DNA of 30,950 nucleotides from IMG/VR virus record IMGVR_UViG_2695420421_000007; one strand, 5' to 3'. A program made the translations under genes and the position numbers. The notes under the pieces are model-generated. The model had not been told where the DNA came from. It saw only the letters and a program-made list of their open reading frames with translations, and did no database searches. The stretch is from a virus (taxonomy: Duplodnaviria > Heunggongvirae > Uroviricota > Caudoviricetes). Positions 7,937 through 28,935 of this stretch are shown piece after piece (position 1 is the stretch's first letter; every line of letters begins with the position of its first letter).

Positions 7937-10759
7937 ATGACGGCAGAGTACATCAGGGACTGGCAACAACCGCGCCACGCAGTGGGGCGTGAAGGAACGG
8001 GGATCCCCGCTCCTGAATCCGCGCTTTCCTCCTGGCTGGATGCCCACCGGGCAGAGAACGAGCGCCGCCAGGAAATGGCTGATGCGGCGTTCTCCGCCAC
8101 GCCACTGGGCAACCTGATTAATAAAAGCCTGGACGCACAGGAAAAACAGGACAAAACCATCACACTGGCAGGAGACGCCAGAAAACAGGCACGCGGCGCG
8201 GTGGATGAAGCCATGGCCTCGCTGCGCCTGCTGCCGTCCTATCTGCGCGATCCGCTTATTCGCCACCTCTCCTTCCTGCGCAAAAAACAGGAAGCCGATC
8301 GCCGGAAAGGCAAAAAGAGCTGGCAGGCGGAACGCTATGCACGCGGAACCCTGCGCAAAATATTCGAACGTCTGGATCGCACTGACGGACACTGGCTGAC
8401 ACCGGGTTATCGCTCCCTTGCCGGACGTGAACGCCTGGACGATTTGCTTTACCTGCCGCAACTCAACAAACACCAGATACAGACGCTGGCCACCATGACG
8501 GCGGCGATGTTCAGCAGCACCTTCGAAAAACTCTGCGATGGTTTTGGCGCGACTGATGGCGAGCTGACCATGGATGTAACGCTGAAGGCGTATCAGATGC
8601 TGGCCCGCATGGCGTTACACTTACACGCCATGCCTCCGCATTATGACGCACTGACAACAGACAAAGACCGGAGGCACGAACCGGACACAGAACTGCTGCC
8701 GGGCGCAATCCTTCGCCTGACCTGTGCGGAATGGTGGAAACGCAAACTGTGGCTGTTACGTTGCGAGTGGAGAGAAGAACAACTTCGCGCCGCCTGTCTG
8801 GTTTCCAGAAAAACATCGCCCTATCTGAGCCAGGACGCGTTAAGCGAGTTTCGCGCACAGCGCGAGAAAACACGCGATTTCCTGAAAAGTTTCATGCTGG
8901 AAAATGAAGACGGGTTCACGATTGATCTCGAGACGGTGTATTACGCGGGAGTAAGTAACCCGGTTCACCGTAAGGCAGAAATGATGGCCACCATGAAGGG
9001 GCTGGAACTTCTGGCCGAAGCCCGTGGCGACAAAGCGGTGTTTCTGACTGTCACCTGCCCGTCAAAATACCACGCCACAACGGAGAACGGTCATCCGAAT
9101 CCCAAATGGAACGGGGCCACAATGCGCGACTCCAGCGATTACCTGGTTAACACGTTTTTTGCGACGGTCCGCAAAAAACTGAACCGCGACGGCCTGCGCT
9201 GGTATGGCATCCGCACGGCGGAGCCTCACCATGACGGCACCGTGCACTGGCATATGATGGTCTTTGCTCATCCGGAAGAAATCGACACCATTGTGTCCCA
9301 CACCCGCGATATTGCCATTCAGGAAGATCGTCACGAGCTGGGCGATGACATAACTCCGCGCTTTAAGGCGGAGTATGTAGACGGCTCAAAAGGCACGCCA
9401 ACCAGCTACATCGCCACCTACATCGGGAAAAACCTGGACAGCCGCGCCGTGGATGGCATCGACCCGAAAACGGGCAAGCCACGCGTTGACCACGAAACCG
9501 GAAAATCAATGGCCGAGAGCGTGGAACGCGCCATCGGCTGGGCGCGCCTTCACCGGGTCCGCCAGTTCCAGTTCTTTGGCATCCCCTCCCGCCAGGTATG
9601 GCGTGAACTGCGCCGCCTTGCCAGCCAGATGGCACGCAACCCGGAAGGCCCGCAACGGCTGAAGGATGACGCAATGGATGCGGTTCTTGCCGCCGCTGAT
9701 GCCGGATGTTTTGCCACCTACATAGAGAAACAGGGCGGCGTACTTGTTCCACGCAAAGACTACCTGATTCGCACCGCCTACGACCTCGCCGATGAGCTGA
9801 ACGATTACGGCGAACAGAGCGTACAGATTTACGGGATCTGGTCACCACTCATCGGGGAATCCTCCCGTGTGTGCACGCATCCGGATAACTGGAAGCTGGT
9901 AAGACGCAAACCGGAAGCGGAAGACAGCGCCCGCGAAAATGGTTTTGACCTTCAGGGCGGCCCTGCCGCCCCTTGGACTCGTGGCAATAACTGTCCCCGT
10001 GTACAGGAAACGGACAACAACGGGACAGAACAGCCGGAAGAACGGCCAGCACCGTGGCCGCAGCTCCCTGACGGCGTTGATGTGGATGAATGGATGCGCT
10101 CACTGAAACGGCACGAACGCCGGGCGCTGATGCGTTCGCTTCGTGACAAACAGGCAAAAAACAGCAGTGATGAAATGCAGAGCTGGACACAGAGCCGCAA
10201 ACAGCAGCGGCCTTTGCCTGATAACCACGAATTACTCGCTAAAGAATGGCGGGAGTCTGCTGAATCTCTCGGCCTGCATATCGGTGAACAACAGATGCAG
10301 CACCTGTTACGGGGCGGCAGTCTGTACGTTGACGGCAGCATCATTGCACCGCAGGGATTTGAAATTGTACGCAAACCGGATACCCGCCCGGACAGCCGAA
10401 TCACGCAGCTCTGGCAGCGCCTGAGCCGTAATCATGGCGTAAGCAGCACGGAGATCCGCCATAACCCGGTCGCCAGCTATCTGACACAGCTGGGGGCATC
10501 AGACCCTGAAGCCGCCGCACGCCTGGCATCCACACTTCAGCAGGACCAGAACACCATGAAAACACCCGTTACCGTGCTTTCTGACATGCTGCGCGCCATC
10601 CGCGACGCAGAGCACGCACAGAGAATCAGTGAAACCACTGAACGCGCCCGCCGCAAAGCAGACCTGCTGCGGGGTGGCCTGACCAGTGGAAACAAAAAAC
10701 AGACAGAAACGGGACTCACGAATCCCGTAAATGAGCAAAAAACGCGCAGCGATATATGA
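7937..10759 (+). CDS. A: Replication initiation endonuclease, P2 gpA family (940 aa)
   Basis: Large last gene of the early operon; contains an HxH block (HWHMMVF) and a downstream Tyr cluster (YIATYIGKN), read as the metal-binding and catalytic-tyrosine motifs of rolling-circle initiators of P2 A type. The C-terminal roughly 180 aa look like an acidic/basic low-complexity extension. Confidence 0.8.
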   Translation: MTAEYIRDWQQPRHAVGREGTGIPAPESALSSWLDAHRAENERRQEMADAAFSATPLGNLINKSLDAQEKQDKTITLAGDARKQARGAVDEAMASLRLLPSYLRDPLIRHLSFLRKKQEADRRKGKKSWQAERYARGTLRKIFERLDRTDGHWLTPGYRSLAGRERLDDLLYLPQLNKHQIQTLATMTAAMFSSTFEKLCDGFGATDGELTMDVTLKAYQMLARMALHLHAMPPHYDALTTDKDRRHEPDTELLPGAILRLTCAEWWKRKLWLLRCEWREEQLRAACLVSRKTSPYLSQDALSEFRAQREKTRDFLKSFMLENEDGFTIDLETVYYAGVSNPVHRKAEMMATMKGLELLAEARGDKAVFLTVTCPSKYHATTENGHPNPKWNGATMRDSSDYLVNTFFATVRKKLNRDGLRWYGIRTAEPHHDGTVHWHMMVFAHPEEIDTIVSHTRDIAIQEDRHELGDDITPRFKAEYVDGSKGTPTSYIATYIGKNLDSRAVDGIDPKTGKPRVDHETGKSMAESVERAIGWARLHRVRQFQFFGIPSRQVWRELRRLASQMARNPEGPQRLKDDAMDAVLAAADAGCFATYIEKQGGVLVPRKDYLIRTAYDLADELNDYGEQSVQIYGIWSPLIGESSRVCTHPDNWKLVRRKPEAEDSARENGFDLQGGPAAPWTRGNNCPRVQETDNNGTEQPEERPAPWPQLPDGVDVDEWMRSLKRHERRALMRSLRDKQAKNSSDEMQSWTQSRKQQRPLPDNHELLAKEWRESAESLGLHIGEQQMQHLLRGGSLYVDGSIIAPQGFEIVRKPDTRPDSRITQLWQRLSRNHGVSSTEIRHNPVASYLTQLGASDPEAAARLASTLQQDQNTMKTPVTVLSDMLRAIRDAEHAQRISETTERARRKADLLRGGLTSGNKKQTETGLTNPVNEQKTRSDI

Positions 10760-10801
10760 AGCGCGCACAAAACAGGCAAAAACGGGATTTCAGAATCCCG
10801 T
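10709..10801. promoter_or_regulatory. Pair of near-identical 20-bp palindromes (ACGGGAyT-N4-AATCCCGT) about 73 bp apart, spanning the A stop and the parM-like upstream region
   Basis: 10709-10728 ACGGGACTcacgAATCCCGT and 10782-10801 ACGGGATTtcagAATCCCGT, each within the same AAAAACGGGA...GAATCCCGTAAA context. Confidence 0.35.
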
Positions 10802-10835
10802 AAACGATTAATTAATCAACATAAGGAAAAGCGAC

Positions 10836-11795
10836 ATGAAAATTTGTATCGACGACGGCTCCACCAACATCAAGCTGGCATGGACTGAGAACGGCGAACG
10901 CCGCAACGCCATCAGCCCGAACAGCTTCAAGTCGGAATGGTCTGCGCCGTTCGGTGGCATGCAGCCCGCGAACTACATGCTTGATGGCGTGCGCTATGGT
11001 TTTGATCCGGTCAGCGATCGCTTTGTCCAGACAACCGACACGCAATACCAGTACAGCGATGTAAATGTCATTGCCATTCATCACGCGCTGGTCAAATCAG
11101 GCATCACGCCACAGGAGGTGGATGTGGTTGTCACCCTGCCACTGAGCGAGTATTTCGACACAAACGCACAGCCGGACATGGCCAACATCAACCGCAAAAA
11201 AGCGAACGTTATGCGCCCGGTGGAGTACCAGAACGGCGAAGCATTCACTATCCGTAACGTGCGGGTTATGCCTGAATCCATTCCGGCTGGCTTTAAGGCA
11301 CTGGCTGACATGAGTCCGTTTGAATCCCTGCTGATTGTGGATTTGGGCGGAACCACGCTGGATGTGGCAAAGGTTCAGGGGCAACTGGCAGGTATCAGCC
11401 AGGTGTTTTGCGATCCACACGTAGGCGTTTCTCTGATGGCCGATGCCGTACTGTCGGTGATGGCCACTAACGGTATGCGCACCAGTCACCACATCGCCAA
11501 TACCATTATCGAACATCGCCATGATGAAGCCTGGCTGCGCCAGCACATCCACAATGACGCGCATTACGCCAGCCTGATGGCGGTTATTCGTGAAAAGGAA
11601 GAAACACTGAAACAACGCGTGATCCGCGCGCTGGCGGGTTTTTCGGGTTACGGGCGGGTGATGGTTGTCGGTGGAGGGGCGGAGATTGTGGCACCCGCTA
11701 TCCGCGAAGCCTGCGGAGTTAATGCGACTTTCATCGCGGACGGGGTGCCACAGTTTGCTCTGGTTAATGGGCTGTACGCAATGGACAAGGAGTAA
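10836..11795 (+). CDS. ParM/StbA-like actin-family ATPase (319 aa)
   Basis: N-terminus MKICIDDGSTNIKLAW and internal blocks (YQYSDVNVIAIHHAL, VDLGGTTLDVAKV, VPAGFKA) parallel plasmid R1 ParM as recalled from memory; strong Shine-Dalgarno AAGGAAAA upstream. Confidence 0.8.
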   Translation: MKICIDDGSTNIKLAWTENGERRNAISPNSFKSEWSAPFGGMQPANYMLDGVRYGFDPVSDRFVQTTDTQYQYSDVNVIAIHHALVKSGITPQEVDVVVTLPLSEYFDTNAQPDMANINRKKANVMRPVEYQNGEAFTIRNVRVMPESIPAGFKALADMSPFESLLIVDLGGTTLDVAKVQGQLAGISQVFCDPHVGVSLMADAVLSVMATNGMRTSHHIANTIIEHRHDEAWLRQHIHNDAHYASLMAVIREKEETLKQRVIRALAGFSGYGRVMVVGGGAEIVAPAIREACGVNATFIADGVPQFALVNGLYAMDKE

Positions 11796-11799
11796 ACCA

Positions 11800-12111
11800 A
11801 TGACGACACCAACCAGACGGATAAGTTTCTATCTGAAGCCTGCGGCCGTCAAGAACGAAAGCGAAGCATGCGCCTGGCTGGGCAGCCTTACACCAGAAGC
11901 CCGCAAAAGCGGCCAACGCGTGGCTTTTCTGGCCGGGCTGGCACTTCTGAAAATGAATCCAGCAGAGGCTTACCGACTGGCTGCATGGGCTGACGATGAG
12001 GCGTTATCGGTGACACAAACCAGGACAGAACGCCCCGTGCCACAGCCAGTACCAACCGCACAGATAACCAGTCAGATAGCAGGGAATATCCGGGCATTAT
12101 TTCCTGAATGA
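11800..12111 (+). CDS. Hypothetical protein (103 aa) in the ParR-equivalent position
   Basis: ATG at 11800 preceded by AAGGAG that overlaps the parM-like stop. No recognisable motif; assignment is by position only. Confidence 0.5.
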   Translation: MTTPTRRISFYLKPAAVKNESEACAWLGSLTPEARKSGQRVAFLAGLALLKMNPAEAYRLAAWADDEALSVTQTRTERPVPQPVPTAQITSQIAGNIRALFPE

Positions 12112-12171
12112 CGAATTTGACGGCTTTTAATTTTATCGGGGTGCACTGTCGCCCCGCACGAGGAAAACACG

Positions 12172-12696
12172 ATGAAAAAATACGAATACATGCTAATGAA
12201 AGAAGCACTGCGGGCTGGTCTGGCTCCCTGTCCTGTATCCGTAGAAGCTGTTGTTGGGAACACGATTTTCCGAACGCTGCGAAATCGCGTATCCGTGAAG
12301 ATGGTTCACCAACCACCCAAATCTACCAGCATGATCTATCTGCCGCTGCCCGAGGCTATCAAACTTATGCGTTCGCTGAAATTTGCGATTTGGATGCAGA
12401 CACAAATCAACAAAGCGGTGCAAAACACCTTCGTTAAGAGACTAATACCGGAGCTTGCTGCCAGATGTGCAAAATGTACCAGACCCGCACTTCAATTTGA
12501 TCTGTCATTGATTCAACAAGCTACGGAGGCAGAACTGTACCGCCTGTCACCTATCCGTGATGCTCACACGGAAGCATCAGAAATGTTCCGGCTCATGTTT
12601 CAATTTAATTTTGCCGTTCGACGCACACGCGTTCAGGTCAATCGCATGATGCAGGAGCAGGAAGAGTTAACACAGTACAAAGGGGGCAGCCAGTGA
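12172..12696 (+). CDS. Hypothetical protein (174 aa), cos-proximal cargo
   Basis: ATG with GAGGAAAA Shine-Dalgarno; preceded by a small GC hairpin (about 12134-12152). No recognisable domain. Confidence 0.55.
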   Translation: MKKYEYMLMKEALRAGLAPCPVSVEAVVGNTIFRTLRNRVSVKMVHQPPKSTSMIYLPLPEAIKLMRSLKFAIWMQTQINKAVQNTFVKRLIPELAARCAKCTRPALQFDLSLIQQATEAELYRLSPIRDAHTEASEMFRLMFQFNFAVRRTRVQVNRMMQEQEELTQYKGGSQ

Positions 12697-28335: not shown

Positions 28336-28935
28336 ATGCGTAAAGTTTGTGCAGCAATTTTGTCCGCAGCCATCTGTCTGTCCGTATCCGGTGCGCCTGC
28401 ATGGGCGTCTGAACATCAGTCCACACTGAGCGCGGGGTATCTTCATGCCCGTACGAACGCTCCCGGCAGCGATAATCTGAACGGGATTAACGTGAAATAC
28501 CGTTATGAGTTTACGGACGCGCTGGGGCTGATTACGTCCTTCAGTTATGCCAATGCTGAGGATGAGCAAAAAACGCACTACAGCGATACCCGCTGGCATG
28601 AAGATTCCGTGCGTAACCGCTGGTTCAGCGTGATGGCGGGGCCGTCTGTACGCGTGAATGAATGGTTCAGCGCGTATGCGATGGTGGGTGTGGCTTACAG
28701 CCGTGTGTCGACTTTCTCCGGGGATTATCTCCGCGTAACTGACAACAAGGGGAAAACGCACGATGTGCTGACCGGAAGTGATGACGGTCGCCACAGCAAC
28801 ACGTCTCTGGCGTGGGGGGCTGGCGTGCAGTTTAACCCGACCGAATCCGTGACCATTGACCTTGCTTATGAAGGTTCCGGTAGTGGTGACTGGCGAACGG
28901 ATGCATTTATTGTTGGTATCGGATACCGTATCTGA
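28336..28935 (+). CDS. lom: Lom outer-membrane protein (Ail/Lom family, 199 aa)
   Basis: Signal peptide then beta-barrel-type alternating pattern with C-terminal ...GIGYRI; lies after J as in lambda. Confidence 0.85.
   Translation: MRKVCAAILSAAICLSVSGAPAWASEHQSTLSAGYLHARTNAPGSDNLNGINVKYRYEFTDALGLITSFSYANAEDEQKTHYSDTRWHEDSVRNRWFSVMAGPSVRVNEWFSAYAMVGVAYSRVSTFSGDYLRVTDNKGKTHDVLTGSDDGRHSNTSLAWGAGVQFNPTESVTIDLAYEGSGSGDWRTDAFIVGIGYRI

Follow-up and report, generated by a model that had tools for sequence, protein, structure and literature searches.

Two GGG-N10-CCC units upstream of parM: a putative parC-like centromere/operator in a P2-like prophage

The actin-like ParMRC system is the textbook example of a DNA segregation machine, and to our knowledge work on its centromeres has been limited to a small number of plasmids. 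Here, we describe a candidate site of this kind at positions 10693-10807 of a 30,950-bp stretch of Caudoviricetes DNA (IMG/VR record IMGVR_UViG_2695420421_000007, referred to as the window), where two short inverted-repeat units lie around the end of the replication gene A of a P2-like prophage and ahead of its parM and parR genes. An earlier note on this DNA had proposed that the repeats are paired binding sites for a dimeric protein, for example a centromere-like site for the ParM module, an operator or a replication-origin element. Judging from comparative sequence evidence, we consider it fairly probable that the phage's own ParM/ParR module has its parC-like centromere/operator here, with the two units as the core.

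In plasmid R1, the centromere parC is a repeat array directly upstream of parM. Its direct iterons of 11 bp fall into two sets of five, which flank a promoter core of 39 bp; the whole is 159 bp long, and approximately one ParR dimer binds each iteron (PMC2241845). The R1 array is also seen in locus L121 of our comparison, as A/C-rich 11-mers on the parM strand followed by a CATAAGGA ribosome-binding region. The srpMRC module of the SXT/R391 integrative and conjugative elements is type II-like and sits on an element that is normally integrated; its srpC site has just four short repeats, direct and inverted, which are located upstream of the motor gene and bound by the adaptor SrpR, a protein without recognisable similarity to ParR (PMC4489591). 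In the Corynebacterium prophage CGP3, the AlpAC/alpS system combines an actin-like protein with a DNA-binding adaptor acting on repeats upstream of their own operon, and, after induction, efficient replication of the phage DNA depends on it (PMC4446434). No description of a ParM of P88/Xuanwuvirus, or of a parC of such phages, was found in the searchable literature.

The region under study is 96-99% identical to the genomes of Escherichia phage P88 and other Xuanwuvirus (P2-like Peduoviridae), and encodes, in this order, gpA, a ParM of the R1/StbA family and a 103-aa ribbon-helix-helix ParR of the pB171 ParR family, which are annotated in P88 as replication endonuclease, ParM and partition protein. 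The parM gene (10836-11795, + strand) specifies an actin-like segregation ATPase of 319 aa with an StbA_N domain (PF06406, 2.7e-82) and a ParM C-terminal domain (PF21523, 1.3e-68), and its nucleotide-binding columns (phosphate-binding and adenosine motifs) are invariant in an alignment with plasmid ParMs. The product of parR (11800-12111, + strand) belongs to PF10784 (Plasmid_stab_B, ParR/StbB; 2e-23). A PDB search with this single sequence gave no match and a family profile was required: a profile of 18 ParRs, that of the window included, matches the pB171 ParR 2JD3 with E=1e-25. By its Pfam families and the 2JD3 match, the prophage therefore has a full ParM/ParR pair of the R1 type, placed between gene A and its cos/portal end. 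ParR has the N-terminal strand TRRISFYLKP and the C-terminal peptide NIRALFPE, part of a motif N-x-x-x-[LM]-F-[PG] that aligns with plasmid ParR C-termini and is the predicted ParM contact. Compared with plasmid and Serratia-phage ParRs, the window protein lacks the segment (the TT..I...I.S.FP region) that in those proteins follows the ribbon-helix-helix domain and precedes the C-terminal peptide, and by alignment it is a minimal ParR. Three features of a type II (ParMRC) locus are found here, namely an actin-like ParM, a ribbon-helix-helix ParR directly downstream of it and a repeated cis site upstream of parM, and the R1/pB171-family pair directly downstream of the units is context that supports a centromere/operator.

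On re-reading the sequence, the two 20-bp palindromes are where the earlier note had placed them: ACGGGACTCACGAATCCCGT at 10709-10728 and ACGGGATTTCAGAATCCCGT at 10782-10801, on either side of the gene A stop codon (10757-10759) and both ahead of the parM start at 10836. Their shared flanks and spacing of about 73 bp, also claimed there, belong to a longer direct repeat of 42 nt on the + strand that has the palindromes at its core (copy 1, 10693-10734; copy 2, 10766-10807; 81% identity; 73 bp start to start). In copy 1, an A-rich lead (CAAAAAACAGACAGAAAC) is followed by the palindrome and then by GTAAATGA. Within each palindrome is a GGG-N10-CCC core. That of the distal unit spans 10711-10726 in the 3' end of gene A, the final 17 codons of which overlap the unit, and that of the proximal unit spans 10784-10799 in the intergenic region; the units lie 125 and 52 bp, respectively, before the parM ATG. 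The 53-bp spacer between them (10729-10781) varies in sequence and is constant in length; it holds the gene A stop codon and includes a direct repeat, CGCGCA-N13-CGCGCA. Scanning both strands of the window for the pattern ACGGGAYTNNNGAATCCCGT with at most three mismatches gave matches only at the two palindromes (4 matches against 0.13 expected; 0 of 100 shuffles reached 4), so that the search of the rest of the prophage suggested in the note leaves the full pattern confined to these two sites. The AAAC motifs of the region are phased at about 10.25-10.5 bp: the observed power was matched by none of 2,000 mononucleotide shuffles at 10.25 bp and by one of 2,000 at 10.5 bp. Repeat scans of the region found no tandem 11-bp array, and no other repeat arrays were found near parMR. 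An imperfect look-alike, ACGGGATT-N7-AATACCGT, is present at 28481-28503 in a late-gene coding region and is probably fortuitous, because chance alone predicts about one exact ACGGGATT per 31 kb.

Distant clades, obtained by protein searches and contig look-ups, show which part of this anatomy is retained. The ParR strand T-R-R-(I/V)-S-F-Y occurs in four clades of P2-like prophages: the P88-like group, two from Hafnia (L089 and L329) and one from Plesiomonas (L330), the ParM identities in L089, L329 and L330 being 94%, 62% and 63%, respectively. In each of these clades, a pair of GGG-N10-CCC units is spaced at 72-73 bp; relative to the parM ATG, the proximal unit is at -51 to -59 and the distal unit at -124 to -131. 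When the upstream regions of the window, L089, L329 and L330 were shuffled, such a pair arose in 0 of 20,000 trials for each, and ten loci whose ParR strand is a different one contain no GGG-N10-CCC pair. Spacers of different clades are unrelated in sequence and the spacing is retained. The gene upstream of the units also differs between clades: L330 resembles the window in that its distal unit falls within the terminal part of gene A, and in L329 a 167-aa open reading frame (ORF) separates gpA from parM. Since the L329 units keep their distance to parM despite this ORF, the units, as far as this comparison goes, track parM rather than gene A. A further element that is common to the four clades, read from their sequences, is ATTAAT at 20-28 bp before the parM ATG. 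Only the P88 lineage shows the wider dyad symmetry (AC..GT, ATT/AAT), and the unit interior in L330 is non-palindromic (GGGACAACAAAAACCC), leaving GGG-N10-CCC as the conserved part. Of the proposed palindromes for a dimeric protein, the paired arrangement thus stands and the full dyad does not extend beyond the P88 lineage. Spacing and parM distance are kept and the dyad, hairpin energy and A-run are not conserved; therefore, on comparative grounds, the conserved entity is a pair of double-stranded motifs with fixed spacing and parM distance, and not a hairpin.

The repeat motif changes together with the DNA-reading end of ParR. In Serratia P2-like prophages (L102, L140-L142), the ParR strand is N-R-K-I-S-F-Y and in IncL/M (pOXA-48-type) and IncI-gamma/K plasmids it is N-R-K-C-S-F-Y; these N-R-K loci have [TC]AGAAAAAT repeats upstream of parM, which form an inverted pair in the phages but all point the same way in the plasmids. 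Sorted by strand, the T-R-R clades have ACGGGATT/GGG-N10-CCC and lack TAGAAAAAT, whereas the N-R-K clades have TAGAAAAAT and lack ACGGGATT. Every second residue of the N-terminal strand points into the major groove in proteins of the ribbon-helix-helix fold, and we infer that the change from Asn/Lys to Thr/Arg would occupy positions facing the groove. Such co-variation is as expected if the repeats are ParR sites. The region in the Serratia prophages and IncL/M plasmids resembles that of the window in its position upstream of parM, and the Serratia version likewise consists of inverted repeats, extends over about 70 bp and opens with AAAAACGGGA; it differs in its motif, [TC]AGAAAAAT, and in its N-R-K instead of T-R-R strand. 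The inverted repeat in L102 and L140-L142 is 19 bp long (GGGAACGAWAYAGAAAAAT, core TAGAAAAAT) and is located about 70-130 bp before parM; TAGAAAAAT is also the direct iteron of the IncL/M and IncI-gamma/K plasmids. The 19-bp repeat flanks a small GC hairpin, the stem of which varies among relatives (GCCG/CGGC versus AGCC/GGCT).

Variation among close relatives was analysed in 114 distinct haplotypes of the region gathered from P88-like contigs. Prophages of the P88 type are very common in E. coli, and more than 240 viral contigs carry this ParM; the 80 viral contigs found with ParM are 99-100% identical and served the polymorphism analysis only, and not that of co-variation. The core arms GGGATT/AATCCC are largely fixed among the haplotypes, and the loop positions 10720, 10791 and 10793 as well as much of the spacer are polymorphic. 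Conservation, which the earlier note had named as a check, therefore applies at two levels: the arms are kept in the 114 haplotypes and the GGG-N10-CCC pair in the four prophage clades. At position 10715 the window has a minority C, which creates a mismatch in the first palindrome; T, found in 83 of the 114 haplotypes, gives a perfect 8-bp arm. A scan of viral contigs for CGGGATT-N4-AATCCCG returned 80 P88-like matches and 40 others, each of which was a single unrelated chance match. One natural variant (L206, IMGVR_UViG_2657245439_000011) has lost one 73-bp repeat unit via recombination between the 42-nt repeats. In near-identical P88-like prophages (L090, L093, L095 and L097), ParR is hypervariable, with 54-100% identity as compared with 98-99% for ParM, a pattern suggestive of recombination, or of diversifying selection, affecting the helices and linker; the strand TRRISFYLKP and the C-terminal NIRALFPE are constant across these variable proteins.

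The repeat also has a trace at the peptide level. A 26-aa ORF (MSKKRAAIYEARTKQAKTGFQNPVND) at 10731-10811 covers the spacer and the second unit in the +1 frame relative to gene A, directly after the CAAAAAAC run; it is open in the Hafnia prophage L089 as well, and in the deletion variant L206 gene A is joined in frame to its tail. The two repeats encode similar peptides, TGLTNPVNE at the tail of A and TGFQNPVND at the tail of the 26-aa ORF. A peptide-level function of the repeat was considered and ruled out: gene A of L089 stops in the middle of the first unit in another reading frame, and the repeat is therefore a DNA-level feature. The 26-aa ORF is probably a by-product of the repeat.

Set beside the described systems, the window shares with R1 parC its place directly upstream of parM and then parR, ParM and ParR proteins of the same Pfam families, an A-rich and helically phased context, the CATAAGGA ribosome-binding region and the presence of two repeat blocks with a spacer of tens of base pairs (39 bp in R1; PMC2241845). 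In contrast to the ten 11-bp direct iterons (2x5) that flank a defined promoter in R1, it has two inverted GGG/CCC units of 16-20 bp placed 73 bp apart, no detected consensus promoter, a distal unit inside a replication gene and a shorter ParR (103 aa) without the middle segment; an R1-type architecture of 2x5 11-bp direct iterons is absent from the window. The likeness to srpC lies in a type II-like module on a normally integrated element, whereas SrpR bears no recognisable resemblance to ParR (PMC4489591) and the window protein is a clear relative of PF10784 and pB171 ParR; repeats, spacing and host element, here a P2-like phage, differ too. AlpAC/alpS is similar in pairing a prophage actin-like protein with an adaptor that acts on upstream repeats, and differs in having the adaptor gene first, proteins that are unrelated in sequence and 24 short TTAAnnG repeats instead of two units. 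By analogy, its part in phage DNA replication after induction makes a role for ParMR in an integrating phage plausible. The element would then be a compact inverted-repeat form of a known kind of element, parC-like in position, association and co-variation and without the architecture of R1.

The analysis itself yields gene families, repeat anatomy, conservation of the repeats and their co-variation with the ParR strand, and from these we infer ParR binding, the number of dimers per unit, autoregulation and a biological role. In the proposed model, a ParR ribbon-helix-helix dimer would use its N-terminal β-strand to read each 16-bp unit at the GGG and CCC triplets, with Arg7 as a candidate guanine reader. 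The units would present themselves on the same face of the helix, because they are seven helical turns apart, and helically phased A-tracts around them may help bound ParR to join in one nucleoprotein complex of about 95-120 bp. The C-terminal NIRALFPE would capture the ends of ParM filaments, and excised or replicating phage circles could be pushed apart or positioned, as with R1 plasmids. ParR binding would probably repress parMR too, since the proximal unit is just upstream of the parM ribosome-binding site. As for the centromere-like site or operator of the earlier note, the fixed parM distance, the 72-73 bp spacing in four clades and the switch of motif with the ParR strand favour such a site. 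Several observations nevertheless weigh against assigning the units to ParR. There are just two of them, i.e. four triplet half-sites, as compared with ten iterons in R1, and the natural variant L206 keeps only one. The centre-to-centre distance between GGG and CCC, 13 bp, exceeds typical subsite spacings of ribbon-helix-helix proteins, and the AAAC motifs with their phase of about 10.5 bp resemble the A/C-rich iterons of R1 and could be the real ParR sites. Autoregulation is unsupported, because consensus scans of 10300-12500 gave no match to a sigma-70 promoter in or near the element. Few clades were compared, all of them P2-like prophages of Enterobacterales. The stronger proposal of a minimal type II centromere, in which two GGG-N10-CCC units exactly seven turns apart and partly in the coding end of the initiator gene suffice for a 103-aa ParR to couple excised or replicating P2-like genomes to ParM filaments, is offered tentatively and seems to us doubtful.

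Other explanations account for parts of the same evidence. One holds that a different protein binds the units, which would then be an accessory site for the cis-acting initiator gpA close to the 3' end of its own gene, or a target of another phage regulator or a host factor, with the phased AAAC motifs and A-tracts as the true ParR iterons. The distal unit does lie within gene A in P88 and the Plesiomonas prophage, the phased A-rich motifs do look like R1 iterons and the repeat of the Serratia clade also opens with AAAAACGGGA; we nonetheless regard this as improbable, given that the distance of the units to parM is held even with an ORF between gpA and parM, that the motif changes along with the ParR strand and that the 20-bp palindrome pattern is found nowhere else in the phage genome, with no enrichment of half-sites elsewhere. 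A second explanation places the function in transcripts, with the palindromes forming minus-strand intrinsic terminators or stem-loops that stabilise or process the A-parM mRNA. The earlier note had stated that neither palindrome has the T-run of an intrinsic terminator, which is correct for the + strand but not for the minus strand, where a T-rich run lies behind each palindrome and both are flagged as terminator-like (8-bp stem, 4-nt loop and a TTTTTGCC or TTTCTGTC tail), the hairpins having energies of about -9 to -10.7 kcal/mol and z-scores of -2.1 to -4.0. In L329 and L330, both the stability of the hairpins and the minus-strand T-run are lost: predicted energies of -8.2 and -5.5 kcal/mol in the window compare with -1 to -3.2 kcal/mol in these prophages, and the L330 units lack internal dyad symmetry and a preceding A-run. 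None of the 114 haplotypes has a double-sided compensatory change in either local hairpin, and the common one-sided changes are C.A in the first unit (29 haplotypes) but G.T in the second (44 and 19 haplotypes), which does not fit a stem needed on one particular strand. Every gene from A to the portal gene is on the + strand, and no Rfam 15 match with E<=1 was obtained for either strand of 10400-11000. We consider transcript hairpins very unlikely.

A further structural possibility is base pairing between the two palindromes, in which the right arm of the first unit meets the left arm of the second and the outer arms do likewise. The resulting long stem would arise in single-stranded intermediates of rolling-circle replication and might act, for instance, as a signal for lagging-strand initiation. 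When 10685-10840 is folded, the minimum-free-energy structure indeed pairs both palindromes (-33.3 kcal/mol, z-score -4.0), and at 10723-10787 the majority has T-A, L085 has C-G and L329 has A-T, changes that leave the local hairpin partners mismatched; there are two further candidate compensations. Each compensation event comes from one lineage, however, and L330 has A.A at 10723-10787, with complementarity limited to GGG/CCC. The long arms of the Serratia repeats show no co-variation and the element follows parM, not gpA or the origin (ori), so that a stem between the units appears highly improbable. We give equally little credence to the view that the repeat has no function and is left over from a 73-bp tandem duplication where the parMR cassette joined gene A. 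Such a relic would explain why the repeat is a direct duplication and why it collapsed to a single copy in L206 by recombination between the repeats, but not why the two-unit layout and spacing persist across clades with fully diverged spacers, nor why the arms are better conserved than the loops or spacer.

If the two units did suffice as a minimal type II centromere, bacterial-actin DNA positioning would join the life cycle of an integrating Enterobacterales phage, beyond plasmid inheritance. Combined with a minimal ParR, a two-unit centromere of fixed spacing would provide a compact model for addressing the minimum number of adaptor sites per ParM filament. A partition module in an integrating phage could serve replication efficiency, a plasmid-like carrier state or incompatibility with plasmids, and the predicted site is a precise target for deletion and binding work on the role of the module.

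The remaining suggestion of the earlier note, a replication-origin element, is not supported in view of homology with P2. The annotated nick site of P2 lies inside gene A (P2 sequence GCGCCTCGGAGTCCTGTCAATAAC / GCCGCGCCTCGGAGTCCTGTCAATAACTGT), and its homologue in the window, GCCGCCCCTTGGACTCGTGGCAATAACTGT, maps to about 9955-9995, at the aligned position of gpA and about 740 bp upstream of the palindromes, and on this ground the palindromes were rejected as the gpA nick site or ori. By the same homology, 9955-9995 is probably the ori of this prophage. Gene A itself (7937-10759, + strand) encodes the gpA replication endonuclease, as assigned by Pfam (Phage_GPA, 6.6e-131) and by the P88 annotation. 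The protein has 940 aa as compared with 761 aa in P2; its alignment to P2 A stops near residue 800, and the C-terminal extension of about 140 aa beyond this point has no Pfam match.

Two single contigs deserve mention. In L236 (IMGVR_UViG_2874920711_000009), an IS66-family element lies beside the second unit, and the first unit is deleted together with the last ~177 codons of gene A; the idea that this marks a cassette boundary retaining only the second unit was dropped, as the structure is that of an IS66 insertion with an adjacent deletion and carries no weight. A 226-kb contig assigned to 'Vagococcus sp. WN89Y' (L100, NZ_JBQPOM010000071.1) carries a 98%-identical ParM and both units, and probably represents Enterobacterales contamination of the Vagococcus assembly.

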